Source: a virus
Taxonomy: Duplodnaviria; Caudoviricetes
Reading direction: 5' to 3' (one strand)
Virus record (IMG/VR): IMGVR_UViG_3300032319_000377
Location: 1 to 25,235 of that record
Length of the DNA stretch: 25,235 bases
The notes beneath the pieces are model-generated. The model was not told the origin of the DNA. It saw only the letters and a list, made by a program, of their open reading frames with translations, and ran no database searches. The position numbers and the translations under genes are program-made. Positions 4,948-25,020 of the stretch are shown one piece after another (position 1 is the stretch's first letter; the number at the start of each line of letters is the position of its first letter).

Positions 4948-6054
4948 CTAGCGACCCGCATTCGCAGGGTGGCTCAGGTTGTAGTCATACCGGCGGTAGA
5001 AAAAATTCAGCGCAGCATTTGAGGTTGTCTGGATGCCATATTGCACCTGAACCGCACCGGTACCGACGCGCCGCAGGTCAAGACCGTAGAGCGGATCGCC
5101 CCGCACCGCGTATTGGGATACGTCCAAGTGGATCAACCCAGGGTCGCTCTGCGTCCCGACCGTGAAGGAACCAATCGACGCCGGATCGTCAACAAGCGGG
5201 AAGGAATCGCCCTGCTGGGTCGCAATCTCCGCGCTGATCGAGTCGGTGGCAAGTGAACCCTGCCCGTATTCGATCACGGTATTCGACCCGAGAACGTCCT
5301 GCAAGCGGATTGAGTTCAGGACGGTGGATGAGCGTGGTGCGTTCGAACCGGCGGTAGTCATTGCAGTGATTGAGTGCAGCAGGCTGCCGACCGGAATGTT
5401 CTCGAACGTGCCAAAAGCACCACTGGTGCCGGAAAGCGCAGGCTGCGTTTGCAGCCACGTTGGAAGTGCGCGTGGCAGGTACGCCTCGAGCGGATCGCCA
5501 GCCTCGGGAAGCACGAGGTCGAGGTACACGTCAACCGTTGCCGCGTTCAGGGTCGCCCCTGAACCCATCGCCGTTGACGTGGCGAAGTTGCCTGTAAGAG
5601 TCAGGTTGCCGCCGGTGGAAGGCGGAATCCCCGCGGATAGGTCCCAGCGGTTTTCGTCCAGTCGACCACTTGCGCCGTTGAACACCAATGGAGCAACGCC
5701 GAAGTGAACATAATAGGCAAAGATCGCGCCATATACCGCCGTCTGCGAGCTGGCGGTTGGTGCCGGCCGCTTCGGCGAGAGCCACTGCAGGAAATGGCGG
5801 TTGTGGTAGAAGAAGGTCCGCATATCGAGCGCTTGGAAGTAGGTATGTCCTGCCCCGCTGAGCGTCAACGAAGAGATCAGCCGGTCCCAGAAGTCGTTAT
5901 AGGCGCCGGTCGTTGTGGTCGTGATCGAGCTGGGACGCACAACAATCCACATGCCAGTGATTGTCTGGGGCTTGTTGGACAGGTCGAGGGAAAAGGAGCC
6001 ACCGGAAGACCACGTGATGGAAACCGGGTGTCTGAGTGTTTGTCGCTTAGCCAC
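4948..6054 (-). CDS. Major capsid protein, double jelly-roll (STIV B345-like)
   Basis: 368 aa, beta-rich. TWSSGGSFSLDL, RLISSLTLSGAG, IPVGSLLHSI, SAEIATQ and LIHLDVSQY...LDLRR parallel recalled STIV MCP segments. Strong AAGGAG RBS, followed by a hairpin and vertex genes. Confidence 0.85.
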   Translation of the reverse strand: MAKRQTLRHPVSITWSSGGSFSLDLSNKPQTITGMWIVVRPSSITTTTTGAYNDFWDRLISSLTLSGAGHTYFQALDMRTFFYHNRHFLQWLSPKRPAPTASSQTAVYGAIFAYYVHFGVAPLVFNGASGRLDENRWDLSAGIPPSTGGNLTLTGNFATSTAMGSGATLNAATVDVYLDLVLPEAGDPLEAYLPRALPTWLQTQPALSGTSGAFGTFENIPVGSLLHSITAMTTAGSNAPRSSTVLNSIRLQDVLGSNTVIEYGQGSLATDSISAEIATQQGDSFPLVDDPASIGSFTVGTQSDPGLIHLDVSQYAVRGDPLYGLDLRRVGTGAVQVQYGIQTTSNAALNFFYRRYDYNLSHPANAGR

Positions 6055-6066
6055 GTATGAAACTCC

Positions 6067-6603
6067 TTAGAAACCCATCGTTCCGACGCCGGTAAGCGCC
6101 GAGGTTGACATGACCGCCTGCGCGGTCGTGCCCGAGCTAATGCCGGTCAGGTTCTGGTATCCGCCCTGATTGCCGGTTGCTGGCAGCATCGCTGCGCCCA
6201 TCTTCGGCAGCGCCTTCGCCGCACCGCTCACCGCACTCGTGACGCCGCTGCTGAAGCTCGGCTGCCCTTGCAACAGGTTGACCTGACCAACCAAGCTCGC
6301 GATCACGTCGCTTGCAGCGATTGCCGTCGCACCGAGTGCCACGTCGTCCTTGTGTTGCGAGCTGATCGGGAGCATCGGGCCAATAAATCCGGCGATGGCC
6401 GCGGCGGCGATGGTTTCCATTGCGCCGGTGCTGAGACCGGGCCGGACGCCGTCGACCATTGCGGCAACGCCGGGCAGGAAGCTGGTCAGGATCGCCCCGA
6501 CGTTCTTCGCTAGATAGACGCCTGACGCCGCGGCAACGCCACGCCCCACGTCAAGGCCCAGGACCTCTGGATTGTGGCCGTAGCGGCCGTAGTACCGTGC
6601 CAT
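6067..6603 (-). CDS. Membrane protein immediately upstream of the MCP (putative major internal-membrane protein)
   Basis: GGAGG RBS; several Ala/Gly-rich hydrophobic helices; N-terminal RYYGRYGHNP. Confidence 0.8.
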   Translation of the reverse strand: MARYYGRYGHNPEVLGLDVGRGVAAASGVYLAKNVGAILTSFLPGVAAMVDGVRPGLSTGAMETIAAAAIAGFIGPMLPISSQHKDDVALGATAIAASDVIASLVGQVNLLQGQPSFSSGVTSAVSGAAKALPKMGAAMLPATGNQGGYQNLTGISSGTTAQAVMSTSALTGVGTMGF

Positions 6604-10709: not shown

Positions 10710-11384
10710 CTAGAACGGCACGTCACCGCAACCGTCCGAGTCGTCAGTCTGCGCCTCCTCCGCTTCCGGCACGGTGTCCATCACCAACGGGGTCCAACCG
10801 TCCGCGGACAGGCGCGTAAACACGCCAGCCCCGAGAATGTCGCGGTCCGGCAACAGCCGCGCCACGATCTGCTCGATTGGTGTGTTACGTCCGTCAATCC
10901 ACCACTTCGCCCACCCAGAATGGTCGTAGTCGTCCATGCTAAACTCGACGCCCTGCATCAGGTCAGCAAACGCGTTCAACGCGTCGGTGATCGCCTGGTC
11001 ATACGTGTCCCGCGTCAAGCGGTTTGCGAGGAGCTGCATCAGTCCGGCTGCCTGCTCCCGTGTCAACCAGTCGCGAAGTTGGCTGGACCGGGACTGCCGG
11101 ATCGTCTGTGCCCACGGCACCTGTTTCGGGCCGCCTTCCAGCGCGACCCGCCTCCCCGCGTCTACCGCGTCCTGATCGGCCAGAGCCATCTTCTGGCGGT
11201 AGCATTCCCTACAGTCCCTGTCCTGTTGTGCCTGCACCCACTTGCTGCGCTGGGGGTTGGCCCCCGCAAATATCTGAATCGTTTCCGTGTGCCCGCACAA
11301 CCGCGTAATCAGGTAGTCGACCTTCTCGGCGGTCGCATCGGTGCCGCTGGACCTTGTCAGTGGTGTACGCCTTGGTCGTTGCAC
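10710..11384 (-). CDS. Conserved mobile-element protein (CGH...CxxC, KQxxWAxxIR, WWIDxR) with acidic DVPF tail
   Basis: Motif pattern recalled from phage/ICE hypothetical proteins; GAGGA RBS; function unknown. Confidence 0.75.
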   Translation of the reverse strand: MQRPRRTPLTRSSGTDATAEKVDYLITRLCGHTETIQIFAGANPQRSKWVQAQQDRDCRECYRQKMALADQDAVDAGRRVALEGGPKQVPWAQTIRQSRSSQLRDWLTREQAAGLMQLLANRLTRDTYDQAITDALNAFADLMQGVEFSMDDYDHSGWAKWWIDGRNTPIEQIVARLLPDRDILGAGVFTRLSADGWTPLVMDTVPEAEEAQTDDSDGCGDVPF

Positions 11385-14763: not shown

Positions 14764-15204
14764 ATGGTCGTTATTAGCGTCACGCTGCCGTATCCACCGT
14801 CGACCAATCACCTGTACCGGCGGTTGCGCGGTCAGCTCGCACTGACGCCGGAAGCTCGCGAGTTTCGCCACCACGCCCGTTTGATCTGCGCGAGTGTGGT
14901 TGACCGGCCGATCAGCGATCCGGTCGCGGTGTACCTCAGGATTTACCGCCCCCGTCGTGTCGGCGATCTGGACAATCTTCTCAAGGCCGTGCTTGATGCC
15001 TGCAACGGGGTGATCTGGGTTGATGATTCGCTGGTCACGGGGATTCACGCGCAACGGTTCGAGGATGCCAGAAATCCGCGGGTCGAGCTGACCGCGATCC
15101 CCGCGCCAACGATCAGCGCCACCTACGACGCGTTGTACGATCACTTGCACCAACTCCAGGCACTCACCGATGCCACCACGTCACCAAGTGACGCGGTCGG
15201 CTAG
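14764..15204 (+). CDS. rusA: RusA-family Holliday junction resolvase
   Basis: LPYPPSTNHLYR, GDLDNLLKAVLDA, WVDDSLV; AGGA RBS with ATG at 14764. Confidence 0.92.
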   Translation: MVVISVTLPYPPSTNHLYRRLRGQLALTPEAREFRHHARLICASVVDRPISDPVAVYLRIYRPRRVGDLDNLLKAVLDACNGVIWVDDSLVTGIHAQRFEDARNPRVELTAIPAPTISATYDALYDHLHQLQALTDATTSPSDAVG

Positions 15205-15870
15205 CCGTCGCCGCTCCGCGTCCGTCAATCGCAGGTAGATCGTCGTCGTATCGACGCGCGCATGGCCGAGGTGGTTTTGCACCTCGGTCAGCGGCAGGCC
15301 GGTTCGCAACAGATGCACCGCCGCCCCGTGGCGAAAGTCAAGCGGTGTCGCCAACCGCGCACCGTCCGCACCGATCACGCGCACTCCGGCGCGGTCCGAC
15401 GCACCCTGCACGATCCGGTGTACCTCTCGACGGCTGATCGGACGGTCGCCGCTGACGCGCGTCCGGAAGAGGTGCCCATCATTGGCGCACCGTGTATCTC
15501 GCCCGAACGCCACGAGCGCACCGATCAAGTCGGGTGCCACGTAGACCAGTTTGGTTCGCCGACGCTTCGTGCGTTGCTTGAGATTGGTTAGGTGTAGCGC
15601 ACCCTCGGCACGGTCAAGGTCGCACAGGCGGAGCGTCGCCACCTCGGACACGCGCCCGCCCGACTGCCACAGGACCTCGACGATCAACCGGTCACGCGTC
15701 GTGGCGCACGCCGCCACGAGTGCGCGAGCATCCTCGCGCGTCACGTAGGCGGGTGGTCCGCCCGAGCTGGCGCGTGCCACGCCGACGATTGCCGGCAACG
15801 GTACCGCGCGTTCCCCACGTTCTGGGACGTTCGGTCTAGCGAGTGTGATCGTGCCGCTTGTGCCTGTCAC
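15181..15870 (-). CDS. Tyrosine recombinase, catalytic domain only
   Basis: GGRVSE (R), LKQR (K), LDFRH (R), HLGH, TTTIY (Y); 229 aa with no N-terminal binding domain. Confidence 0.93.
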   Translation of the reverse strand: MTGTSGTITLARPNVPERGERAVPLPAIVGVARASSGGPPAYVTREDARALVAACATTRDRLIVEVLWQSGGRVSEVATLRLCDLDRAEGALHLTNLKQRTKRRRTKLVYVAPDLIGALVAFGRDTRCANDGHLFRTRVSGDRPISRREVHRIVQGASDRAGVRVIGADGARLATPLDFRHGAAVHLLRTGLPLTEVQNHLGHARVDTTTIYLRLTDAERRRLADRVTW

Positions 15871-15898
15871 CGTGCCTCCCCCGTGATCGTTGCGAGTC

Positions 15899-15928
15899 TA
15901 CGTCACACAATACGGATACTGGGACGTA
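15899..15928. other. Putative tyrosine-recombinase target site (12-6-12 imperfect palindrome)
   Basis: tacgtcacacaa-tacgga-tactgggacgta, 28 bp upstream of the recombinase start; arms match at 9 of 12 positions. Confidence 0.65.
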
Positions 15929-15939
15929 AGCGTTTACTG

Positions 15940-16740
15940 TCACGACGTGACCGGCACTAGACGACCGTTTACATACACGCCGTCAATTCCGGTTTTTGGG
16001 TATTTCGCACGATTGGCCGTATAGCCTTTATCGCCTGCCGCTGGATACGTCATGGGGGTTAGAGTTTCATCTTCCCATTCGCCTTCTTTAGGGCGTGGGT
16101 GCATTGGCGATGGCACGGCAGTAGATCGCGATTGTTCGCGTTTCACCGACCAACCATTCTTGAGGCGTTTCACAATCGTCCCTATGCCCTCGTATTGACC
16201 GTACCCCCACGTGTACCAGAGGTGGACGCGTGATCCGACACTCAACGGGCCGCCCGATACTTTTTCCTCTGAAGCGGCAAGGGCTTGTGCCCGGGCCTCT
16301 TGGTACGCGGCTCGTCGCGCAAACGAGTCGGCTTCATCCGCCAATGCAAACGATTTGCGAATCTGTCGGTCGCGTGTGTTGAGTCCTGACCGACGCCGTG
16401 CCGTCATGACGCCGCCCCCCGCCATCGCGGCCTCTCGCAAATGGAACCGCACCGACGAACTGCGGGCCGCCACTTCGTCGCGCCGTTTGGCCTCTAAGGC
16501 GCGTAGACGTTCGGCGAGGGCTGCCGCGGCGGCGCTGCCGGACGGCGACACGCTGACGGGCGCCGGTTCGATTACAGGCGGTACGGTCTCCGGCACATCA
16601 AGCAATGACGGCTGGTACCACTCCGATGAACGAATAGGGTGGAACCGCCCGCTCCTGTCGCGGAATCCGGCGCCGGTGGGATTCCGGTTTGCATGGGACA
16701 ACCACCACAACGCACCGCCCAACGCAATAAACGGCCACAT
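15940..16740 (-). CDS. TM-RNP leader cargo protein A
   Basis: MWPFIALGGALWWLSHANRNPTG...; leader paralogous to 20166-21356; C-terminal beta-rich SH3-like segment. Confidence 0.8.
   Translation of the reverse strand: MWPFIALGGALWWLSHANRNPTGAGFRDRSGRFHPIRSSEWYQPSLLDVPETVPPVIEPAPVSVSPSGSAAAAALAERLRALEAKRRDEVAARSSSVRFHLREAAMAGGGVMTARRRSGLNTRDRQIRKSFALADEADSFARRAAYQEARAQALAASEEKVSGGPLSVGSRVHLWYTWGYGQYEGIGTIVKRLKNGWSVKREQSRSTAVPSPMHPRPKEGEWEDETLTPMTYPAAGDKGYTANRAKYPKTGIDGVYVNGRLVPVTS
16586..16719. repeat. 134-bp diverged repeat (leader of cargo A); partner at 21196-21329
   Basis: Colinear without gaps; 25 bp identical (gggacaaccaccacaacgcaccgcc). Confidence 0.9.
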
Positions 16741-16763
16741 AGCGCATCCTTCTCGGCACGTTG

Positions 16764-16868
16764 TCAGTCATCCAACAGTACCACCAGTACCAACGCCGCC
16801 ACTCCCAACCCAATCAGTGGAGCGTACGGACGGACGGATACTGGGACGTTAGTCCTCGTCCGCAACAA
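16764..16868 (-). pseudogene. Orphan C-terminal membrane-anchor fragment (or 34-aa microprotein)
   Basis: Reads NVPVSVRPYAPLIGLGVAALVLVVLLDD-stop; only a TTG start without a clear RBS; absent from the ORF track. Confidence 0.6.
16834..16849. repeat. 16-bp direct repeat of part of the recombinase site
   Basis: acggatactgggacgt is identical to 15912-15927. Confidence 0.9.
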
Positions 16869-17433
16869 GTACCAGAACCGCCAGACCGATCAGCCACCAC
16901 GGAAACGCACGTGACGCCGTCAGGCTGGCCGGTAGCGACGCCATCAGGCTGTCAACCGCGGGTCTCAGTGCCGCCGGGACGTAGTCGATCCTCGCCTCCC
17001 CGTAATCCGGTGCGACGGGCGCGGGTGGCGCCACCTGTACCTGCACGCCCTCCAGCCACTCCCGCGGGTCAATCGTGCCCGCGCCGTGAACGTCAACGAC
17101 TGGTCGATCAGTGATGGCAAAGTGTAGATGCGGCCCGGTCGTCTGCCCCGTCAGTCCGACGCTGCCAATCACTTGACCTGCCGTCACCGGCCCGATCACG
17201 CGCGTGTCAGGGTCGCTGCCGTGCCCGTAATACGCGGTCCGCGACCCGTCGAGGCTGATCAGGTACAATGCGTTCCCGGCAGTGGCGGACGAATACGGTC
17301 GCGTCACGCCGTCGAATACGGCGATCCACGGGGTGCCGAGTGCCGTCGGTAAATCAACCGCCCTGGTGCCGTCCCAATGATCGGTCACTCGCTGCCGTTC
17401 AGGCAACGGAAACGCGCCCGCCGTTGTCGCCAC
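16849..17433 (-). CDS. M23 peptidase with C-terminal membrane anchor (putative virion-associated)
   Basis: H...AVDL, YYGH, AGQVIGSVGLTGQTTGPHLHF, IDP; C-terminal PWWLIGLAVLVLVADED. Confidence 0.9.
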   Translation of the reverse strand: MATTAGAFPLPERQRVTDHWDGTRAVDLPTALGTPWIAVFDGVTRPYSSATAGNALYLISLDGSRTAYYGHGSDPDTRVIGPVTAGQVIGSVGLTGQTTGPHLHFAITDRPVVDVHGAGTIDPREWLEGVQVQVAPPAPVAPDYGEARIDYVPAALRPAVDSLMASLPASLTASRAFPWWLIGLAVLVLVADED

Positions 17434-17434
17434 G

Positions 17435-17734
17435 CTATCCGTCCGGAAACAGGCGCATTGATAGCGCCTTGATTGTGTCGGCGAGTGTCTGCAACCGCAT
17501 CCGGTAACTGATCAGCTTCCGCTGATGCGTCACCGTCCCTGCGGGTGGTGCCGGTTTGGCGCGCTCGTACTGGTATCGACTGTTGAGGGTCTCGTAGGTC
17601 GCCTCCACCTTCCAGAGCTTATTCCGGATCGCGTCGTAATTCGGGCCACGCGTCGGATTGCGCCTCCGAGCGCTGCCAACGAAACTGCCCGCTGCTCCGT
17701 GTCGGTGCGCCCGAGTGCATCCCGGATAGTGCAA
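17435..17734 (-). CDS. His/Cys-leader RNP cargo protein (99 aa)
   Basis: TTG start with AGGA RBS; MHYPGCTRAHRHGAAGSFVGSARRRNP. Confidence 0.75.
   Translation of the reverse strand: MHYPGCTRAHRHGAAGSFVGSARRRNPTRGPNYDAIRNKLWKVEATYETLNSRYQYERAKPAPPAGTVTHQRKLISYRMRLQTLADTIKALSMRLFPDG
17658..17733. repeat. 76-bp diverged repeat (His/Cys leader); partner at 18466-18541
   Basis: Colinear at offset 808; shares ctgccaacgaaactgcccgc. Confidence 0.9.
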
Positions 17735-17754
17735 AGTAGTTGTCCTTTGTTCTG

Positions 17755-18132
17755 CTAACTGGTACGGACGAACGTGCGGAAAAAGCCACGCCGCTTTTTG
17801 TGCGCATCCCGTCCAGCTCGTGTGCTTTCACCCAAATTGTCAATGTCTGCGCCGGTAGAAAAACCCAACTTGCGCTGAACGGAGGCCAGTTTGGCTTCCG
17901 CTCGCTTGATTGCTGATTGTTTGCTGCTCAGCCATTTGGTGGTTCCGGGCCAGTACGGTAGGCCTTGACGTAGTTCTGACAGCCGGTCGTACAACGCTTG
18001 CTTTTCCGCTAATAGTTCTGCGCGCGTTGGATTGCGGCGCAGCGTAGAGCGTTGTGGATTGCGTTCCTTGCGCCCTTTCAGATACCAATACGCGCCGCCC
18101 ACCGCCGCGAGTGCCAATAGTTTGTTATCCAT
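17755..18132 (-). CDS. TM-RNP leader cargo protein with two RNP motifs
   Basis: MDNKLLALAAVGGAYWYLKGRKERNPQRSTLRRNPT; basic helical cargo. Confidence 0.8.
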   Translation of the reverse strand: MDNKLLALAAVGGAYWYLKGRKERNPQRSTLRRNPTRAELLAEKQALYDRLSELRQGLPYWPGTTKWLSSKQSAIKRAEAKLASVQRKLGFSTGADIDNLGESTRAGRDAHKKRRGFFRTFVRTS

Positions 18133-18179
18133 CGTGATCGTCCTTTCAGCCGGTTAAAATTGTAGATTAATCTTGACCC

Positions 18180-18542
18180 TTACCGGGGTATAGACTGATT
18201 GGGATACTTGCCGTAGCGCTTGCGATAGGCTTCGTAAGCGGTAATGGTGGCCGTGCGTTTGTCAAAGTCAGCCTTTTGCAGCTGGTACCACCGGTCACGC
18301 CACCGCTCAGCTTCCGGCGATCCGGGGCCGTAATTCCGTTCGGCGCGTTCCCATTCAGCAAGTACCCTATCTTCTTTTAAGCGGTTCGCGCCTTCGCTCA
18401 ATCGCGCTTGCATTAGTGTCGGTGCGCGCTTGCTTACCGCGTAGGTTTTTCGCATCGGCTTCGGGTTGCGCCTCCGCCCACTGCCAACGAAACTGCCCGC
18501 CGCACCGTGTTTGTGTGCGCGTTTGCATCCTGGATAGTGCAC
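18180..18542 (-). CDS. His/Cys-leader RNP cargo protein (120 aa)
   Basis: AGGAG RBS, GTG start; MHYPGCKRAHKHGAAGSFVGSGRRRNP. Confidence 0.8.
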   Translation of the reverse strand: MHYPGCKRAHKHGAAGSFVGSGRRRNPKPMRKTYAVSKRAPTLMQARLSEGANRLKEDRVLAEWERAERNYGPGSPEAERWRDRWYQLQKADFDKRTATITAYEAYRKRYGKYPNQSIPR

Positions 18543-18563
18543 TGCATTACTCCTTTTCGTGTG

Positions 18564-18917
18564 TCAGGCTAACCGGTTAGCCACTTTGTTTGATTCTATC
18601 GCCCGTCGCGCCCACGCAAGCGCCCGCATCGACTGTGGCCGGGTTCCACCGCCCCACAACGCGTGCGCCACGACGCCCGGGCTTGGGTACCCATCCGCGC
18701 CGGGTTTCGCCCGTGGTGCGTCGAGGTCCACCAGGTGCCTAGCAAACCACGCGACCATCCGCGTTGCCTTGTCGATCGTCATGCGACCCTGCGCCATTGC
18801 GCGCGCCTCATTGATCGTCTGCGCTCGCAGACCGGGTCCGCCCCGACCCTGTGCGACCCACGCAACGCCACGTGACGCGTTGTAACGCAACCACGCAGGC
18901 ACGGCCTCGACGTACAT
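18564..18917 (-). CDS. Conserved small phage domain protein (RMxxWFARH...YPSPG...LWGG)
   Basis: Motif recalled from head-morphogenesis regions of tailed phages; function unknown. Confidence 0.75.
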   Translation of the reverse strand: MYVEAVPAWLRYNASRGVAWVAQGRGGPGLRAQTINEARAMAQGRMTIDKATRMVAWFARHLVDLDAPRAKPGADGYPSPGVVAHALWGGGTRPQSMRALAWARRAIESNKVANRLA

Positions 18918-18919
18918 CG

Positions 18920-19138
18920 CTACTTACCCTTGCCGAGTCCGCGCAACGTCAACGCGAGACGCGCCCGTTTCGCCACCAGTCCACACGCACGCGCCGCAAT
19001 CCGCAGCATTGCCGCCGGTATCGTCTCGCCCGTGGGAATGCCGAGCTGCCGGTGCAGGCTGCCGGGTTTGTGTTTTGCGAGTGCGCCCGCGATCCACTTG
19101 CGGGGTTCGGGGTTCCGTCGTTTCTGTGCGGGCCTCAC
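18920..19138 (-). CDS. Small basic RNP protein (KWI...KPGSLHRQLGIP...IP...RARLAxTL)
   Basis: GTGA coupling; KRRNP precedes a recognisable small basic phage domain. Confidence 0.8.
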   Translation of the reverse strand: MRPAQKRRNPEPRKWIAGALAKHKPGSLHRQLGIPTGETIPAAMLRIAARACGLVAKRARLALTLRGLGKGK

Positions 19139-20169
19139 GCCGTCACCTTGCGCTTTCGGGTCTTGCGTTCCGCGGTCAGTTCGGCCGCAAGTTTCGCCGC
19201 CTTGGCGTCCAGTTGCGCCCGCCGTCGGCTGAGCTGGCGTAGTACGCGCTCCTCTTCCCTTGCACCACCCTCGGCGGCCTTGCGAACCGTTTCGTGATGG
19301 TCAATCACGGACAGGTAGTACGACGCCTCCTCCTGCCTCGACGCGTCAGTGTCGCGCACGCGTCGCCACCGGGTGCGTTGAGCGTCGAGGTACTGGCGAA
19401 ACGCCTTGCCCCACGCCCCGGTGTGCAGTCCGACCGGGACGCCGGTACGTGTGTCATACGTGATGTAGCGACGCTTCCGGCGGGTCTTGTCTGCCGTGAA
19501 AATGGGAAACCCATCGGCATCCTCGCCGAGGTACTCGCCTCGCTCGGTCACGTCCTGATCAATCCACTTCCGACGGTCGGCGGGCAAGAACGCTGCTACC
19601 TTCTGCCGGTCTCCCCCGAGTTCCTTGACCGTAAATTCGAGGTTGTCGAGGTACGTTCTGCGTGCGTCCGCCCCAAGCGCGCGGGCTTTGGACCGTATCT
19701 CGCGTTCCTGGGTCCGCAGTGCGTTAGCCTCAGTGCGCGTCGATGCAACCTCTGCCGCATACGTGCGGGTCCGCGCGTCCTGGTACCGGTCTCCCAACCG
19801 TTGCCGCAGGGGAATTCGCACGACCGTACCGTCTTCCCTCTTGCGACTGAAAAAATCACCCTTTGCCCACTTGACGCGCGGGACGGCGACGGGCTGGTAC
19901 TCGTCGCGTTCCCGCACTTCACGCGCTGCGGCCTCGGCCGCCTCGCGCGCCTCTCGACGCTTGGCGGCGTTGATTGATCGTGTGTATCCGGCCATATTGG
20001 CGAGTCGGCGCATCGCCGCGCTGCTCTTGCCATCAATACCGCCAATGATGGGTGCGTCTGGGTCGTAAGGGTTGCGTGCGGGTCGTGACAACCAGTACCA
20101 CGCCGCGCCGAGTATTCCGAGGGTCGCCAACGGGTTCACGACGTAAGTACCTTTTATCTGCGCGTTCAT
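19135..20169 (-). CDS. TM-RNP leader cargo protein (Arg-rich, helical)
   Basis: NPLATLGILGAAWYWLSRPARNPYDP; start at ATG 20169 or GTG 20139. Confidence 0.8.
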   Translation of the reverse strand: MNAQIKGTYVVNPLATLGILGAAWYWLSRPARNPYDPDAPIIGGIDGKSSAAMRRLANMAGYTRSINAAKRREAREAAEAAAREVRERDEYQPVAVPRVKWAKGDFFSRKREDGTVVRIPLRQRLGDRYQDARTRTYAAEVASTRTEANALRTQEREIRSKARALGADARRTYLDNLEFTVKELGGDRQKVAAFLPADRRKWIDQDVTERGEYLGEDADGFPIFTADKTRRKRRYITYDTRTGVPVGLHTGAWGKAFRQYLDAQRTRWRRVRDTDASRQEEASYYLSVIDHHETVRKAAEGGAREEERVLRQLSRRRAQLDAKAAKLAAELTAERKTRKRKVTA

Positions 20170-21356
20170 CCGAGGTAGCTTTCGGGCGCCATTTGTTTCA
20201 GGCGCGCCAGTACCGCCTTGGCAATGTCTACCTGTGCCACGGCTTTACGATGCTGGGCAGCGGGCCACTTATCCTTACTTAGCAGATAGTCGATGGTTTC
20301 GGTCACCCGTTCTTCCGCCCGGCGTACCGCACTCTCCCAACGCATCGCGTTTTGCATTTCGCGCTGAAACTTGCGGCTTGCCTCATCGCGTTTGTGCTTT
20401 TCCCACTCCTCATGCTGCCGCCGATTGCGTTCTTCGAGCTTGGCAATCTCCGCCAGTCCCTCCTTGTCATCAGGCAACACAAACCGCCCTGGTTCGAGTT
20501 CGCGCACGCCGTTAGCTGCGGCTTCTTCCTGGGCAGCGGTGTACCGGTCGCGCGCCTCGTCAAGCGTGCGCTGCAAACCGCGTGAGTCGAACCGCGCCAA
20601 TTCGGGGCTGTATTTGTCGTAGGCTTCGGCCACCGCGACCAGTTTGGCGTTCGTCGCGTCCCATGCTCGTAGCTGTTTGAGCTTTTTCTTGGCGACCGCA
20701 ACAGCTATGGAGACCTTGGCCTTGTCAGGATCGCCGGGCAAGATTATCCGGTTGAGCTGGTCAGGCAATCTTCGCAGCATCTCGATGAAGGGCGCTGCGT
20801 CGCGGGCCCGCGTATATGGAGTAGGTATCCGCGTTGGCGTGGACAGGTAGGCCGTGTCCCGCAACGAGGCGCCTAATGCCTGGACGGTGGGCGAAGTCAT
20901 GTAATGGAGGGAATCCCATAGCGCGTATAGCCCATCCTGAAAATCTTTGTCTTGATTGCTTTGTTCCGCCCTCAGGCGTGCCTGCTCCTCGCCTAACTTG
21001 TCACGTTCTCGCTCAAGCGCAGAGTAGGCTTCCCACTGCTGCCTGTTTGAGTCCTCGACCTCGCGTAAATCGTTGCGTGCGTTGATCACACGGTCAATGT
21101 ACGTCTGGTAGTTCACTTGCGCAGTAACCGGCAAACGCGCGGGCCGTGCGGGTCTGGGCGCTGTCGCCACTACAGAACGTGGCGTCCGTGCCTTTGTCTC
21201 CGGTTCATCGAGCAACGACGGCTGGTACCACTTCGAATTACGAATCGGATGAAACTTCCCTGACTTGTCGCGGTAGCCCGCACCGGTCGGGTTGCGATTT
21301 ACTCGGGACAACCACCACAACGCACCGCCAACAACGGCCAGACCTATCGGGTTCAT
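20166..21356 (-). CDS. TM-RNP leader cargo protein B (long coiled coil)
   Basis: MNPIGLAVVGGALWWLSRVNRNPTG...; charged heptad-rich body. Confidence 0.82.
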   Translation of the reverse strand: MNPIGLAVVGGALWWLSRVNRNPTGAGYRDKSGKFHPIRNSKWYQPSLLDEPETKARTPRSVVATAPRPARPARLPVTAQVNYQTYIDRVINARNDLREVEDSNRQQWEAYSALERERDKLGEEQARLRAEQSNQDKDFQDGLYALWDSLHYMTSPTVQALGASLRDTAYLSTPTRIPTPYTRARDAAPFIEMLRRLPDQLNRIILPGDPDKAKVSIAVAVAKKKLKQLRAWDATNAKLVAVAEAYDKYSPELARFDSRGLQRTLDEARDRYTAAQEEAAANGVRELEPGRFVLPDDKEGLAEIAKLEERNRRQHEEWEKHKRDEASRKFQREMQNAMRWESAVRRAEERVTETIDYLLSKDKWPAAQHRKAVAQVDIAKAVLARLKQMAPESYLG

Positions 21357-21360
21357 GGCA

Positions 21361-21993
21361 TCAGTACCTTAAGTACTTTGGTCTGAAAGCCGTATCTAAG
21401 TGTTCGCGCACGCGCCACGTGTCGTCTTCTCCGGTTATTTTGAAGCGTTTCATTCCGGCGGCGATGATGCTTTTACGTTTGGCTTCCACCTGCGCGACAG
21501 TCCACTTCGGCACATCGCTCATTTTCTTGCCGCTAGCGCCCATTCGTTCTAAAGCGGTTGGCTTGCGCTTGTACGTTCCGGGGTCTGGCAATTCGGCCAT
21601 ATCATCCTTGATTGCCGCTTCTACCTTCGCGGCTAGTTCGCGCCACCGCGCGTAATCTTCCCAGCTCGGCGGGTTGTCGAATAGCCCGGGCAACCCGCGC
21701 TGGGTCGTTTGGCGTGGGGCTACGTCGAATAGCGTTGCTTGTGTGCCAGCGTCGATCCGCAATTGCATGAGGTCATCTAGGGCGCGTCGGTATTTGGCCT
21801 TTGCTTGTTGGCTTGTGGAGGCTCCGCGAGCCGCATCGGCCAGCTCGCGCACCTTCTCCTCAGCTTTGTCGATCGCGCCTGCGCGAACCACACTGGGGCG
21901 CCTACCTCGTGTTGGATTACGATGCATGTTCGGTCGCGACAGGTACCACAACGCACCGCCAAACGCGATCAATCCAAGGACAGACCGATCCAT
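21361..21993 (-). CDS. TM-RNP leader cargo protein (210 aa)
   Basis: ATG at 21993 in a TGATG overlap; MDRSVLGLIAFGGALWYLSRPNMHRNPT; internal DNPP. Confidence 0.8.
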   Translation of the reverse strand: MDRSVLGLIAFGGALWYLSRPNMHRNPTRGRRPSVVRAGAIDKAEEKVRELADAARGASTSQQAKAKYRRALDDLMQLRIDAGTQATLFDVAPRQTTQRGLPGLFDNPPSWEDYARWRELAAKVEAAIKDDMAELPDPGTYKRKPTALERMGASGKKMSDVPKWTVAQVEAKRKSIIAAGMKRFKITGEDDTWRVREHLDTAFRPKYLRY

Positions 21994-22478
21994 CAGAAAA
22001 GCTCCTGCCGCATACTGCTTGTGAACTGAAGGGACGTCCCGAGACTGACCGCGTCTGGTGCGTTCAACCGTGCCGCCGGTTCGAGGAGCGTCGGCACACT
22101 CTGGTACGGACGCGTCAGACCAATGCCGGCCGCATCCGTCACCAACGACGGGCCGCCTAGGAGCGCCTCGACGGCATCCTTCCGGTACTCCCGCGGCATA
22201 TGCCCTTCGTAGACGTTGACCAGTACCGCCATCGTGCCAACACTTGCCGCGAGCGGCACCCAGGATCGTGCAATCCACGAGATCACGCCTGCGGACAACA
22301 GCGCGATAGCCGCTGCCGGACGGTACGACGCGCGGTGCCGTTCACACTCGGCGGGACTGGTCGCCTCCGCGCGGATTTGCGCGAGGTTCGATCCCATGTT
22401 TCCGTAGACGTTGGCAGTCTCGCTGACTGCCAGCAGGGTCCACGCGGCTAACTCGGTATTACCAATCGGCGGCTGCAT
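21993..22478 (-). CDS. Membrane protein coupled to the packaging ATPase
   Basis: TGATG overlaps; hydrophobic hairpin AAAIALLSAGVISWIA / WVPLAASVGTMAVLV. Confidence 0.75.
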   Translation of the reverse strand: MQPPIGNTELAAWTLLAVSETANVYGNMGSNLAQIRAEATSPAECERHRASYRPAAAIALLSAGVISWIARSWVPLAASVGTMAVLVNVYEGHMPREYRKDAVEALLGGPSLVTDAAGIGLTRPYQSVPTLLEPAARLNAPDAVSLGTSLQFTSSMRQELF

Positions 22479-23470
22479 CAGCGGTGTCCCTTGTTGTAAC
22501 TCAGGCGGTCAGACCAGAAACTCGGCAGCTGGAAATGCACCGGCCCCCGGTACTCGCTGCTGATCACCCACGCGTGCCGTTTGCGTTCGCTCTCCGAGAT
22601 TGCCTGCCAGAACGGTTCGGCCTCGGTTATGAACGGTGCAAGTTCCTGTCGCTCAATTGCCTGCCACATCATGGGTGGAGGCTTGAGGAAAATCGCGTCC
22701 GCGTCGAGCGAGTACTTCGTGACGGCCGCCGCATATTGCACGTTCACGACGCAGTTGATATTCAGATGCCGAATGATCTGCACCAAGTGCTTAAACGCCT
22801 TAACAGCGCCCCCGCCACTGGAGGCACTGTCAAGCACGATCCCGGCGTCATCCACGATCAGGCTGGACCCGTGCGGGAGCGCCTCTTCCAGCCAATCGTG
22901 CGGCCGTGAGTCGAGTTCCTCGGGCGCGTCGTCATCCTCGACGGCGTCGGTATCCGCGTCAATCACGGTACGGCGCTTGACGCGTCGCACGCGCTGATCA
23001 ACCGGAACGCGAAGCTCGTGCCATCCCGGCGGGAGCTTGTCCTGACTGATGCCCCACGCGTAGGTGTCACGATCCCACAGCTCGCAGAGCCGTGCGGCCA
23101 GTGCCGTCTTTCCCGTCTTGCGCAGGCCAAGCACGAAGACCAGGCCGCCGTCAAGACCGCGGATATCCCGCACGACCTTACGTTCACCCGATCCGCTGTA
23201 CCACGGCGCACACACGGTACAGGCGGCACCCGCGGGAATCTCCGTGACCGACGCGCCCTGTGGTTGCGTCCAGCCGCGCGCATCGGCAAACTGCACCGCG
23301 CTCGTAAACAGCGACGCGCCCTCGGGTCCCAGCAGAATCGACGCCGCCTGTGGGCCGAGTTCGCGCACCAAGCGATCCGCCGCCGCCACGTTGCCAGTGG
23401 TGGCCGCGTGCGCCTGTGGTGCGTACCGGGCGGCGTTGATCAGCTTCTGGAGGTTCCCGAGGTTGAGCAT
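22478..23470 (-). CDS. Genome packaging ATPase (FtsK/HerA superfamily, A32-like)
   Basis: Walker A GLRKTGKT, Walker B LIVDD, and IRHLNINCVVNVQ (RH and sensor Q typical of DJR-virus ATPases). Confidence 0.88.
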   Translation of the reverse strand: MLNLGNLQKLINAARYAPQAHAATTGNVAAADRLVRELGPQAASILLGPEGASLFTSAVQFADARGWTQPQGASVTEIPAGAACTVCAPWYSGSGERKVVRDIRGLDGGLVFVLGLRKTGKTALAARLCELWDRDTYAWGISQDKLPPGWHELRVPVDQRVRRVKRRTVIDADTDAVEDDDAPEELDSRPHDWLEEALPHGSSLIVDDAGIVLDSASSGGGAVKAFKHLVQIIRHLNINCVVNVQYAAAVTKYSLDADAIFLKPPPMMWQAIERQELAPFITEAEPFWQAISESERKRHAWVISSEYRGPVHFQLPSFWSDRLSYNKGHR

Positions 23471-23482
23471 CGGTACCGTACC

Positions 23483-23746
23483 TTAGGCCTTTGCCATGTT
23501 TGGACGCATGAGCAGGTAGTACGCGAGCGCCGCTGCGCCCACATACATAAGCGTCTTGCTACCAGACTTTTTGCCGTACATCGGCATCTCCGGGTTGCGT
23601 CGCGTGCGTCGTTTCATTGCCATCGGCGCCGTCTCTCCTCGCCACATCTTGCCTGCCGCCTTCAGGGCGCGGGCGTGATCCGCTGCCGACGCGTTTGCCG
23701 GCAGACTGCGCAGGACGTTTGTGCTAAACGTTTTCCACGTCTCCAC
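23483..23746 (-). CDS. Small basic protein with RRNP and C-terminal TM
   Basis: AGGAG plus GTG at 23746; METWKTF...KAAGKMWR, then RRTRRNP, then LMYVGAAALAYYLLM. Confidence 0.75.
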   Translation of the reverse strand: METWKTFSTNVLRSLPANASAADHARALKAAGKMWRGETAPMAMKRRTRRNPEMPMYGKKSGSKTLMYVGAAALAYYLLMRPNMAKA

Positions 23747-23763
23747 GGTAAGTACTCCTGACC

Positions 23764-24240
23764 TCACGCTACCGGCGCAGTGTCGGTCGCTGCCGACGCT
23801 GAGCCGCCAAACCATCTGCGCGCCTGCGCGACCGCGGCTGCAATGCTGTCTGCGGTGCCGACGAGTGTGCCCTCATTTATTGTCACGACCTGCTTTGACG
23901 CGCTGTTCCACGCAAACCCGGGCGCGCCTTGTGGCCCCAGGTCAATCACCGCGTTCGTTCCCGTTGCTCCGGTCGACGGTGGCGGAGCAGGTGCGCCCGT
24001 GGCGCCTGCGTTGAAAAATGCCTTTACGATCTGTACCGCCTCGTCAATTGTGGCGGCCGTGCCTATGTCGGTGTTTTCCTTGATGGTCCTCACCCGATGC
24101 GTCCAAGGATGCCACGAGAACCCGGCCGCACCTTTCGGGCCAAGGTCGACGGGCGGTTGGGTGGACTGGTAGTACCAGTACGCGCCACCACCGACCGCGC
24201 CGACAATCGCTAACCGTCCGAACAATGAAGAACGCGCCAT
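23764..24240 (-). CDS. N-anchored membrane protein with two 46-aa repeats
   Basis: ATG at 24240 (TAATG overlap); LAIVGAVGGGAYWYY; two DLG...GFxW...GTA repeats. Confidence 0.8.
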   Translation of the reverse strand: MARSSLFGRLAIVGAVGGGAYWYYQSTQPPVDLGPKGAAGFSWHPWTHRVRTIKENTDIGTAATIDEAVQIVKAFFNAGATGAPAPPPSTGATGTNAVIDLGPQGAPGFAWNSASKQVVTINEGTLVGTADSIAAAVAQARRWFGGSASAATDTAPVA

Positions 24241-24554
24241 TATCCCACCAATCCTCGGCCGTCCTGCCAACGCATTGGACCGGCCAACCGTGGCGGTTTT
24301 CCGGGTTCCGTGATCAGGTACTCGGGTCGTTTTTCCGGTGCAACACCGTCGCCCCGGTCGCCCGCCTCGTGACGCCACCGCGAGCCGTCCGCCCGCTCAT
24401 ATTCGACTGCGAGCAACCGGTGAACGTGTTCGCGCCCGTGCCGGTTTATCAGCGCCCCGACCGCGGCACGCGCCCCGTCACTGACCGGATTGCGACGCAG
24501 GACGCCGCTTAACCACGCCACGTCAGGATCAGTCGCGTGTGATCGTCTTCGCAT
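24240..24554 (-). CDS. RRNP protein with small beta-rich C-terminal domain
   Basis: LRRNPVS; VEYERADGSRWRHEAG...GRGLVG; operon tiling. Confidence 0.72.
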   Translation of the reverse strand: MRRRSHATDPDVAWLSGVLRRNPVSDGARAAVGALINRHGREHVHRLLAVEYERADGSRWRHEAGDRGDGVAPEKRPEYLITEPGKPPRLAGPMRWQDGRGLVG

Positions 24555-24558
24555 CGCC

Positions 24559-25020
24559 CTACCCGTTTGCCGCGTACCACGCGCGCGCGATCAGTACCGC
24601 GTCCGATTTGGTGTCTGCATGCCCGATGACGGTTCGCTCACGGATGGTTAGGACCGCACCCGTGCTGTCCCACGCAAACCCGGCCGCCGCCGGGTCCTCC
24701 GCGCCAAGGTCGACGCTTCGCCCTGGTGCCGGAAGCGCCTGCCGGTTGGCCCCCGTCGAGGTTGATCCAGCGGTCGTGTTTGGCGCGCCGCCCGGACGGT
24801 CGACGACACTTGTACGACCGAAAGCCTTTTGAAGCGCATCGGTCGTACCGGTCGAGACCAGGCCGCCCGCCTGTCCAATGGTCGTCGTCAACGCTTGCAA
24901 CGGCAGACCAAACAACCCGCCCTGCGCCGCCTTGTAGGCGACGTAGCCACCCGCGACATACAACGCGACGCGTCCGTACCGCGTCGTCCCTCGCCCACCG
25001 AAATCAGGATTGCGTCTCAC
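24559..25020 (-). CDS. RRNP-TM membrane protein with one copy of the 46-aa repeat
   Basis: GAGGAG plus GTG at 25020; MRRNPDF...VALYVAGGYVAY...VDLG...GFAW. Confidence 0.78.
   Translation of the reverse strand: MRRNPDFGGRGTTRYGRVALYVAGGYVAYKAAQGGLFGLPLQALTTTIGQAGGLVSTGTTDALQKAFGRTSVVDRPGGAPNTTAGSTSTGANRQALPAPGRSVDLGAEDPAAAGFAWDSTGAVLTIRERTVIGHADTKSDAVLIARAWYAANG

Follow-up and report, generated by a model that had tools for sequence, protein, structure and literature searches.

The window analysed here comprises positions 1 to 25,235 of the IMG/VR virus record IMGVR_UViG_3300032319_000377, 25,235 nucleotides (nt), in which the particle genes and an array of mostly small genes all lie on the minus strand (Table 1). 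Five genes of this array (cargo genes 1 to 5) code for near-identical N-terminal leaders, as a first-pass annotation of the sequence had reported, and each leader is followed by a different body, referred to as the cargo. The leaders end in the tripeptide Arg-Asn-Pro (RNP), and this one short motif marks both the core genes and the strain-variable array of the virus. For comparison, we used four close relatives among IMG/VR contigs (G001-G004), whose capsid proteins are 76-99% identical to that of the window, together with more distant proviruses.

Table 1 Features of the window discussed in the text (positions in nt; aa, amino acids; pLDDT, predicted local distance difference test; STIV, Sulfolobus turreted icosahedral virus; MCP, major capsid protein).
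Positions	Strand	Feature	Details
4948..6054	-	Capsid protein	368 aa; model pLDDT 86.5; Foldseek STIV MCP 2bbd E 4.3e-14, PRD1 P3 E 8.8e-14
6067..6603	-	Predicted membrane protein just before the capsid gene	HNP in the window; comparison with relatives
15181..15870	-	Tyrosine integrase, directly downstream of the cargo array	PF00589 E 9.8e-22
15912..15927	-	16-nt direct repeat, copy 1, downstream of cargo gene 5	Exact repeat
15940..16740	-	Cargo gene 5, 266 aa, mosaic body	RNP 16678-16686; second module about 16585-16677
16764..16849	-	16-nt repeat copy 2 (16834-16849) and remnant of M23 C-terminal helix (16764-16847)	85.5% DNA match to the G003 M23 tail
16849..17433	-	M23 peptidase with C-terminal hydrophobic helix, without RNP	PF01551 E 1e-12; kept in 4/4 close relatives
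17435..17734	-	Second HYPGC leader, RNP (17654-17662) and cargo	99-nt repeat shared with the first HYPGC gene, upstream sequence included
17755..18132	-	Cargo gene 4, 125 aa, helical body	Hydrophobic leader, two RNPs (18055-18063, 18028-18036)
18180..18542	-	Soluble Cys/His leader (HYPGC type), RNP (18462-18470) and basic cargo	Leader swap in G003
18564..18917	-	Array gene without RNP	phrog_2859 domain E 7.9e-11; kept in 4/4 close relatives
18920..19138	-	72-aa basic protein, 7-residue soluble stretch before RNP (19109-19117)	Relative in G001 only
19135..20139	-	Cargo gene 3, 334 aa, long helices and beta region	RNP 20068-20076; GTG start, upstream ATG 20169 possible
20166..21356	-	Cargo gene 2, 396 aa, coiled-coil body	RNP 21288-21296; second module RD..G.FHPIR about 21195-21287
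21361..21993	-	Cargo gene 1, 210 aa, basic helical body	Leader 21913-21993, RNP 21913-21921
22478..23470	-	P-loop ATPase, predicted packaging ATPase, without RNP	Walker A/B-like invariant columns
23483..23815	-	Basic conserved protein, RRNP (23591-23599) before a C-terminal hydrophobic helix	Kept in relatives
23764..24240	-	Sixth gene with similar helix, no RNP, predicted opposite orientation	Charge +2/0
24240..24554	-	104-aa protein, RRNP then W.H..GD domain; candidate assembly factor	Homolog alignment
24559..25020	-	Predicted membrane protein, starts M-R-RNP, motif ahead of the helix	RNP kept in G001-G004

Each of the five leaders consists of a Gly/Ala-rich apolar run of 12-15 residues with an aromatic pair at its end, a few further residues and RNP, and the leader DNA is 71-80% identical among the paralogs, upstream sequence included. 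A profile of the leader (28 positions, built from 21 leaders) matched 36 of 1,835,955,588 proteins at E<=0.001, several of them training sequences or near copies of these; 34 of the 36 matches begin at residues 1-3, and the other two are unrelated proteins. Therefore, the leader can be distinguished from a generic short transmembrane helix. The bodies had been described as unrelated. Beyond a short second module this holds, as no pair of bodies scores better than E 0.72 once that module is removed, which rules out five homologous proteins; but cargo genes 5 and 2 share 31 more residues at 81% identity immediately after RNP, with a 134-nt repeat at 79%.

The best 15-residue Kyte-Doolittle means of the leader runs are 1.2-1.7, compared with 2.1-2.9 for the clear transmembrane helices of this genome, and they fall in the range of its soluble proteins, among which the integrase reaches 2.0. 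Because the apolar runs are only moderately hydrophobic, membrane insertion of the leaders is a prediction. Ahead of the run the net charge is 0, and over the 15 residues that follow it amounts to 0 to +6, a distribution which predicts that the cargo is on the cytoplasmic side. In the sixth gene, the GGGAYWYY helix is present and RNP is absent, as had been noted from the start; since its charge (+2 before the helix, 0 after) is N-terminal to the helix, the opposite orientation is predicted. The proteins of 23764-24240 and 24559-25020 share a repeated VDLG...GF.W module (three copies, families D5, D8 and D11), which has no family match and sits on the opposite side of the helix from RNP. A twin-arginine (Tat) signal, whose consensus places the RR-x-hydrophobic pair ahead of the hydrophobic helix, was ruled out because the arginines come after the helix and are followed by Asn-Pro in all five leaders.

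Judged from the sequences compared, the invariant element is RNP and not the hydrophobic helix. RNP is found in 12 of the 42 hand-called window genes, with 13 occurrences against 1.06 expected from composition (within-protein shuffles, n=2000: mean 0.99, maximum 5), and it is the top over-represented tripeptide of the window proteome, a pattern that the first-pass annotation had largely missed. The RNP genes are concentrated in 15940-25020, with 11/16 genes there and 1/26 elsewhere (RusA; Fisher p 1e-5, the boundary having been picked after the data were seen). Besides the hydrophobic leaders, RNP also occurs after soluble leaders, before hydrophobic helices in conserved genes and between tandem modules, up to three times within one protein, at leader-cargo and module-module boundaries. 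Across 58 RNP sites from seven genomes, the coding DNA takes the form of 22 different 9-mers using 5 Arg, 2 Asn and 4 Pro codons, and 12 of the 14 minus-strand DNA matches to RNP coding in the window are in frame within called genes. A pure DNA signal is rejected, because synonymous codons vary and the DNA matches are mostly in frame, and this codon comparison shows RNP to be a motif at the protein level. The residue following it is free (15 different residues at the 58 sites), Arg directly precedes it at 32/58 sites, and the flanks range from acidic to basic while the exact R-N-P is kept.

For the swap test, the array proteins were cut at each RNP and the pieces were compared. Leaders of at least three types end in RNP, and cargo similarity begins at the first residue past it. 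For example, the window cargo of 18180-18542 bears a hydrophobic leader in G003 (81.5% over 92 aa from the residue after RNP), and another cargo, which follows a soluble PKRS..TGRF leader in G003, is preceded by a hydrophobic leader in P0058 (83.6% over 73 aa). The cargo of 17435-17734 is found as an internal second module in G001 (87% over 69), and in G002 the body of cargo 4 follows a soluble leader of the PKRS..TGRF type, with 41% identity over 86 aa counted from residue 1. In a fifth pair the similarity is weaker (36%) and sets in further downstream, at residues 12-77. The helix is thus dispensable, because four cargo families are found behind soluble leaders or as internal modules too. 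As for the membrane tether proposed in the first-pass annotation, a helix is predicted and is compatible with an optional tether, but the conserved element is RNP, and the four families swap between hydrophobic and soluble leaders.

The array also differs among close strains. Although the capsid of G001 is 99% identical, this contig lacks cargos 2, 4 and 5 and carries different ones, and G004, a linear contig with its last gene cut, has 0/5 cargos. The body of cargo 1 is present in G001, G002 and G003 and absent from G004, and it is preceded by three or more different leaders and, in some proteins, by an internal RNP; that of cargo 3 is 53-93% identical in G001-G003. Cargos 1 and 3 are thus kept in 3/4 relatives in the same order after the ATPase region, as fixed genes might be, but the others are variable: the body of cargo 2 is found in 0/4 close relatives and is homologous to P0054 and P0072, and cargo 5, whose C-terminal 184 aa are 83% identical to P0071, is absent in 4/4.

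Contigs of other sequencing runs (X2, X5 and X6, among freshwater, lake-water and aquatic metagenomes, compared at 85% likeness) allowed strain breaks to be located. An X6 contig joins 21304 to 20067, so that cargo 2 is removed and RNP-coding letters stand between the two sides. A joint at 18461 (X2), joints or loose ends at 17663 (X2, X5, X6) and an end at 20067 each adjoin RNP codons. Among 24 distinct joint ends, with the circular-closure row excluded, 3 lie <=1 nt from RNP codons (p 0.005) and 8 lie <=25 nt away (p 0.0003), the ends being not independent of each other and some, in a wider count, being paralogous leader matches. Contigs of X2 and X6 skip a 922-nt insert between the copies of the 16-nt repeat; by this pattern, the entry of cargo gene 5 took place between the two repeats, beside the integrase, and not at RNP, and a remnant of a relative's M23 tail was carried in with it. 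A near copy of the repeat (2 mismatches) is found at the same place in G001 and G003, which could be att-related or an insertion duplication.

To catalogue the payloads, 22 locus proteins, 21 matches of a word-indexed search (28 matches among the 8000 candidates scored, 21 used) and 24 new proteins were pooled to 66 non-identical leader-bearing proteins, in all of which the presence of RNP is circular. Cutting them gave 69 modules in 33 clusters, and 20 proteins carry one of two short second modules. With 33 body clusters for 66 proteins and strain breaks at or beside RNP codons, the earlier proposal of a portable leader with interchangeable payloads is borne out. As many as 63/66 of the proteins are net basic (3/66 acidic), and Lys+Arg content of the cargos is 14-24%. 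The window cargos gave no match at the cut-offs of Pfam, PHROGs, NCBIfam and PADLOC, apart from one sub-threshold DUF463 (E 0.0096), and the model of cargo 3 (pLDDT 68.7; predicted template modelling score, pTM, 0.45) gave 0 fold matches at E<=0.001.

Elsewhere in the pool, a beta-clamp-like cargo is seen in P0068 (phrog_947, E 1.6e-21) and P0085 (E 1e-4). The C-terminal part of a 668-aa G003 cargo has an atlas beta-clamp lead at 0.91, and a sequence search with it against solved structures found no match. The family phrog_16123 is matched both by cargo P0079 and by an early-region gene of the window without RNP (10710-11384), and capture of free genes by the leader would produce such sharing between tagged and free forms. 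In the proviruses G005 and G485, no array of N-terminal helix-RNP genes was found in the stretches examined. In G005 a PBECR2-like domain (E 2.6e-5, under the Pfam cut-off) stands ahead of RNP and a C-terminal helix, and its G485 counterpart has no Pfam match. G485 also carries, ahead of its ATPase, a mosaic 384-aa protein (L052:5013-6164) with DUF6582, an HPIR module similar to that of cargos 2 and 5, and SNP/HNP motifs.

RNP is not limited to the array. In the family of the 104-aa protein, RRNP is invariant in 6/6 aligned homologs (34-70% identity) and is also present in G485, and the part upstream of it ranges from a hydrophobic helix to four residues while RRNP stays constant. The pre-capsid membrane protein has RNP in G003, G004, G005, G006 and G485, and thus in proviruses at 43, 35 and 30% capsid identity, G485 being the one at 30%. 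Because RNP is kept in core genes of such distant proviruses, the tag is a feature of the clade that is older than the cargo array. At six still more distant proviral loci (G324 with two, G127, G188, G322 and G384), no such motif was found in the pre-capsid gene, at 21-26% identity, and the contig of G036 does not include this gene.

Two further observations touch these core genes. The W.H..GD protein is kept down to 30% capsid identity, always with RRNP ahead, and is a candidate reader of the motif or a candidate protease; an atlas search with it gave no usable match and its model is poor (pTM 0.31). In the capsid protein itself, the family consensus has R-H-P near the N-terminus, which resembles RNP/HNP; it terminates the first strand of the model and may be structural.

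As for the virus, comparison of the capsid model with the MCP of STIV gave template modelling scores of 0.67/0.75, and a search of a viral structure library matched it to Bacillus phage Wip1 and STIV. On the strength of this model, the virus of the window belongs to the double-jelly-roll type and is predicted to lack a tail, and its capsid type and hydrophobic proteins suggest a putative internal lipid membrane. Prokaryotic viruses of this Varidnaviria type have a packaging ATPase of the FtsK/HerA kind; the P-loop ATPase of the window is conserved but has no Pfam match or family assignment (best solved-structure match, E 0.017), and its G485 counterpart matches AAA families. Other window products recognised by Pfam are RusA, a D5-type primase-helicase, two M23 peptidases and a transglycosylase. 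An 80-aa protein (387-629) with His residues and a W..GLP..GV end is present in 4/4 close relatives and has no family match. Spike genes vary widely among relatives; a 1,050-aa spike-like protein of G002 (L002:16343-19486) and G003 (L003:7387-10593) was not seen in the window, and G003 and G004 (L016, L017) each carry an apparent DNA methyltransferase with an SPPY motif in the replication region.

Among the four close relatives, two have terminal repeats and two are classed as linear. More distant ones, with capsid identities of 43% and 35%, are carried by two Chloroflexota metagenome-assembled genomes, and a capsid profile matched 11/401 genomes of G005's class and 3/401 of G006's phylum, centres included. 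These relatives are proviruses in Chloroflexota genomes, and from them a Chloroflexota host is inferred for the window virus. The G005 provirus (L012:1678-4308) starts beside a DnaJ-like host gene, a possible site of integration, followed by an integrase-like open reading frame (ORF). At the loose ends at 15887 and 15919 in run X6, letters that resemble a CRISPR (clustered regularly interspaced short palindromic repeats) repeat adjoin a short match to 15887-15919, which suggests a spacer against the window virus that could name its host. G324, G127, G188, G322, G036 and G384 (L043-L051, L055, L056) are more distant double-jelly-roll proviruses of G005's class, and their ORF lists show no obvious ATPase near the capsid gene, no search having been aimed at it.

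The capsid and ATPase gave no match by tblastn against 50,697 phage records, and viral scans with the capsid, the ATPase, the 24240 family and the leader DNA pattern returned the same 2-4 IMG/VR contigs and nothing further. A metagenome scan with the ATPase alignment, covering 23/64 parts, found at least 3 loci at 23-25% identity, which were not counted as relatives. No description of the RNP motif, the array or the lineage was found in the literature accessible as main text outside subscription journals and supplements, including the text available from PMC5894146 and PMC13317609.

We propose that RNP is a virion-sorting tag that would work like the capsid targeting sequence (CTS) of phage T4, with the helix as an optional membrane tether, and we put the probability of this at roughly 0.5. 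Because RNP is common to core and variable genes, is indifferent to the part that precedes it and is kept at the swap points, a docking signal is the simplest reading. RNP may have arisen in core membrane and assembly proteins, in which distant proviruses have retained it, and could be read by a single conserved viral component, for which the capsid protein, the ATPase and the 104-aa W.H..GD protein are candidates. Any gene that recombination places downstream of the ribosome site, leader and RNP would be expressed late and taken up into the virion, and such capture would explain the expanding and shuffling array after the ATPase. The cargos may then be basic internal or minor virion proteins, with cargos 1 and 3 as stable, perhaps DNA-associated components and the others as fast-turnover accessory factors such as the beta-clamp-like domains. 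More tentative is the extended proposal that in these Chloroflexota-associated tailless viruses RNP is a universal address of three residues, that a single assembly component recognises it (the packaging ATPase being one possibility), and that core membrane proteins and hypervariable basic effectors are thereby loaded into the membrane-bound particle for delivery with the genome. Co-delivery with the DNA, for anti-defence or host takeover as the first-pass annotation proposed, would be a step beyond sorting. A complex prediction with an RNP peptide alignment, two capsid chains and the ATPase domain was uninformative (score 0.00).

Several observations weigh against sorting by RNP, in addition to the dependence among joint ends mentioned above. 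First, the Arg is not absolute, because pre-capsid homologs have HNP (the window and G001), DNP (G100) or ANP (G118), and in G002 the motif was not seen. Second, two conserved array genes, the phrog_2859 gene and the M23 peptidase, lack RNP, and the first array gene of G001 has a hydrophobic leader with only ANP at the module junction. Third, the Asn codon at RNP sites is skewed to AAT (37/58 sites; in the window 7/12 against a background of 24%, p 0.011), a skew that copying from a common source would explain as readily as selection would. Finally, in PRD1-type assembly the cytoplasmic side meets the capsid and not the DNA, and delivery into the cytoplasm fits badly because a predicted cytoplasmic cargo would face the capsid.

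The best surviving alternative, although we think it improbable, is that RNP is a maturation cleavage site at which a viral or host protease frees the cargo from its leader and splits tandem modules; this would be compatible with sorting. The position of RNP at leader-cargo and module boundaries (<=3 per protein) with a free residue after it agrees with cleavage, and so does the T4 targeting peptide, which is also a propeptide removed by gp21 (PMC9026906). The 24240 protein, with its invariant Trp, His and Asp and its own RRNP, looks as a self-processing enzyme might, but it has no usable feature match and its model is poor. Moreover, no protein-processing protease family was found by Pfam (43 proteins) or PHROGs (28), the peptidases being two M23 peptidoglycan hydrolases, and cleavage would take little off several proteins in which RNP stands 2-8 residues from the N-terminus.

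Considerably less likely is that the array proteins are no virion cargo but late or lysogenic proteins anchored in the host membrane, where they might serve superinfection exclusion or host modulation, and that RNP recurs because a leader copied from a structural gene is used as a recombination handle. The similarity of the leader DNA among paralogs and in the upstream sequence, the AAT bias, the entry of cargo gene 5 between 16-nt repeats near the integrase and the predicted orientation with the cargo in the host cytoplasm are all in its favor. However, RNP is kept over three unrelated leader types, at internal junctions and in non-homologous core genes of distant proviruses, its synonymous positions vary, and 9 nt is short for a recombination handle. 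Slightly weaker still is a role of RRNP as a small element that binds DNA or caps helices in basic nucleoproteins, which would link the genome to the membrane with no dedicated reader: Asn-Pro often caps helices, and the preceding Arg and the Lys+Arg-rich cargos agree with it, but the exact R-N-P stays constant between acidic and basic flanks, some cargos (3/66) are acidic, and generic binding needs no single invariant tripeptide at each swap point. A concerted assembly around the genome, which would suit such nucleoproteins, is possible for ATPase-bearing viruses of the same realm (PMC13552765).

Tailless membrane-containing phages are usually viewed as minimal particles with a fixed protein set, and, to our knowledge, the selection of minor and membrane proteins for their assembly is poorly understood. 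If RNP is a sorting tag, it points to a recruitment mechanism, and the payload of such viruses would be able to change, as in T4-like phages. In that case the 33 cargo bodies, of which hardly any belongs to a known family, would be a pool of candidate early-acting or counter-defence proteins. Should the more tentative extended proposal hold, double-jelly-roll bacterial viruses would have a polymorphic system of internal proteins, which to date is known from tailed phages, and RNP would offer a tag with which proteins could be loaded into lipid-containing virions.

Three known systems can be compared with the window, each as described in the available portions of the cited papers. First, STIV, PRD1, Wip1 and the bacterial 'STIV group' proviruses (PMC5894146) share with it the capsid fold, a P-loop ATPase, an integrase, several small predicted membrane proteins and a transglycosylase with a C-terminal helix. 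The comparison is one of capsid fold similarity, structural identity is just 12-14%, and the portions of PMC5894146 consulted describe no shared peptide tag or cargo array. Second, polyvalent and MuF-fused effectors (PMC5512222) are likewise mosaic effector modules predicted to be packaged in the virion, for which the PBECR2-like domain of G005 may be compared. In contrast, polyvalent proteins belong mostly to portal-terminase phages and are large multidomain chains with at least 2 recognised conflict domains each, whereas the window cargos are mostly single small modules with an RNP tag, no MuF and no Pfam domain at the cut-off.

Third, in T4-like phages a conserved 10-residue peptide encapsidates diverse, poorly conserved basic proteins, and the T4 CTS is the sole conserved part of the highly diverse internal defence proteins IPI, IPII and IPIII (PMC3012670, PMC9026906). 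In both systems, a short conserved N-terminal peptide precedes diverse basic proteins that differ between close relatives. The differences are also clear: T4 has a tail, its head forms around a protein scaffold core, and packaging and anti-restriction activity are proven for it, whereas the window virus has a double-jelly-roll capsid and its cargos are putative virion proteins. The T4 CTS has 10 residues, is strictly N-terminal and is removed by gp21, whereas RNP has three residues and stands after or before a helix, after soluble leaders, internally and in core genes. No prohead protease family of the gp21 type was found by Pfam (43 proteins), PHROGs (28) or NCBIfam (17), although an unrecognised or host protease may act instead. 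With another type of capsid, no prohead protease in these searches and a motif that is shorter, partly internal and present in core genes, the RNP system is not a member of the T4 CTS system; by analogy, it is a system that would work like it.

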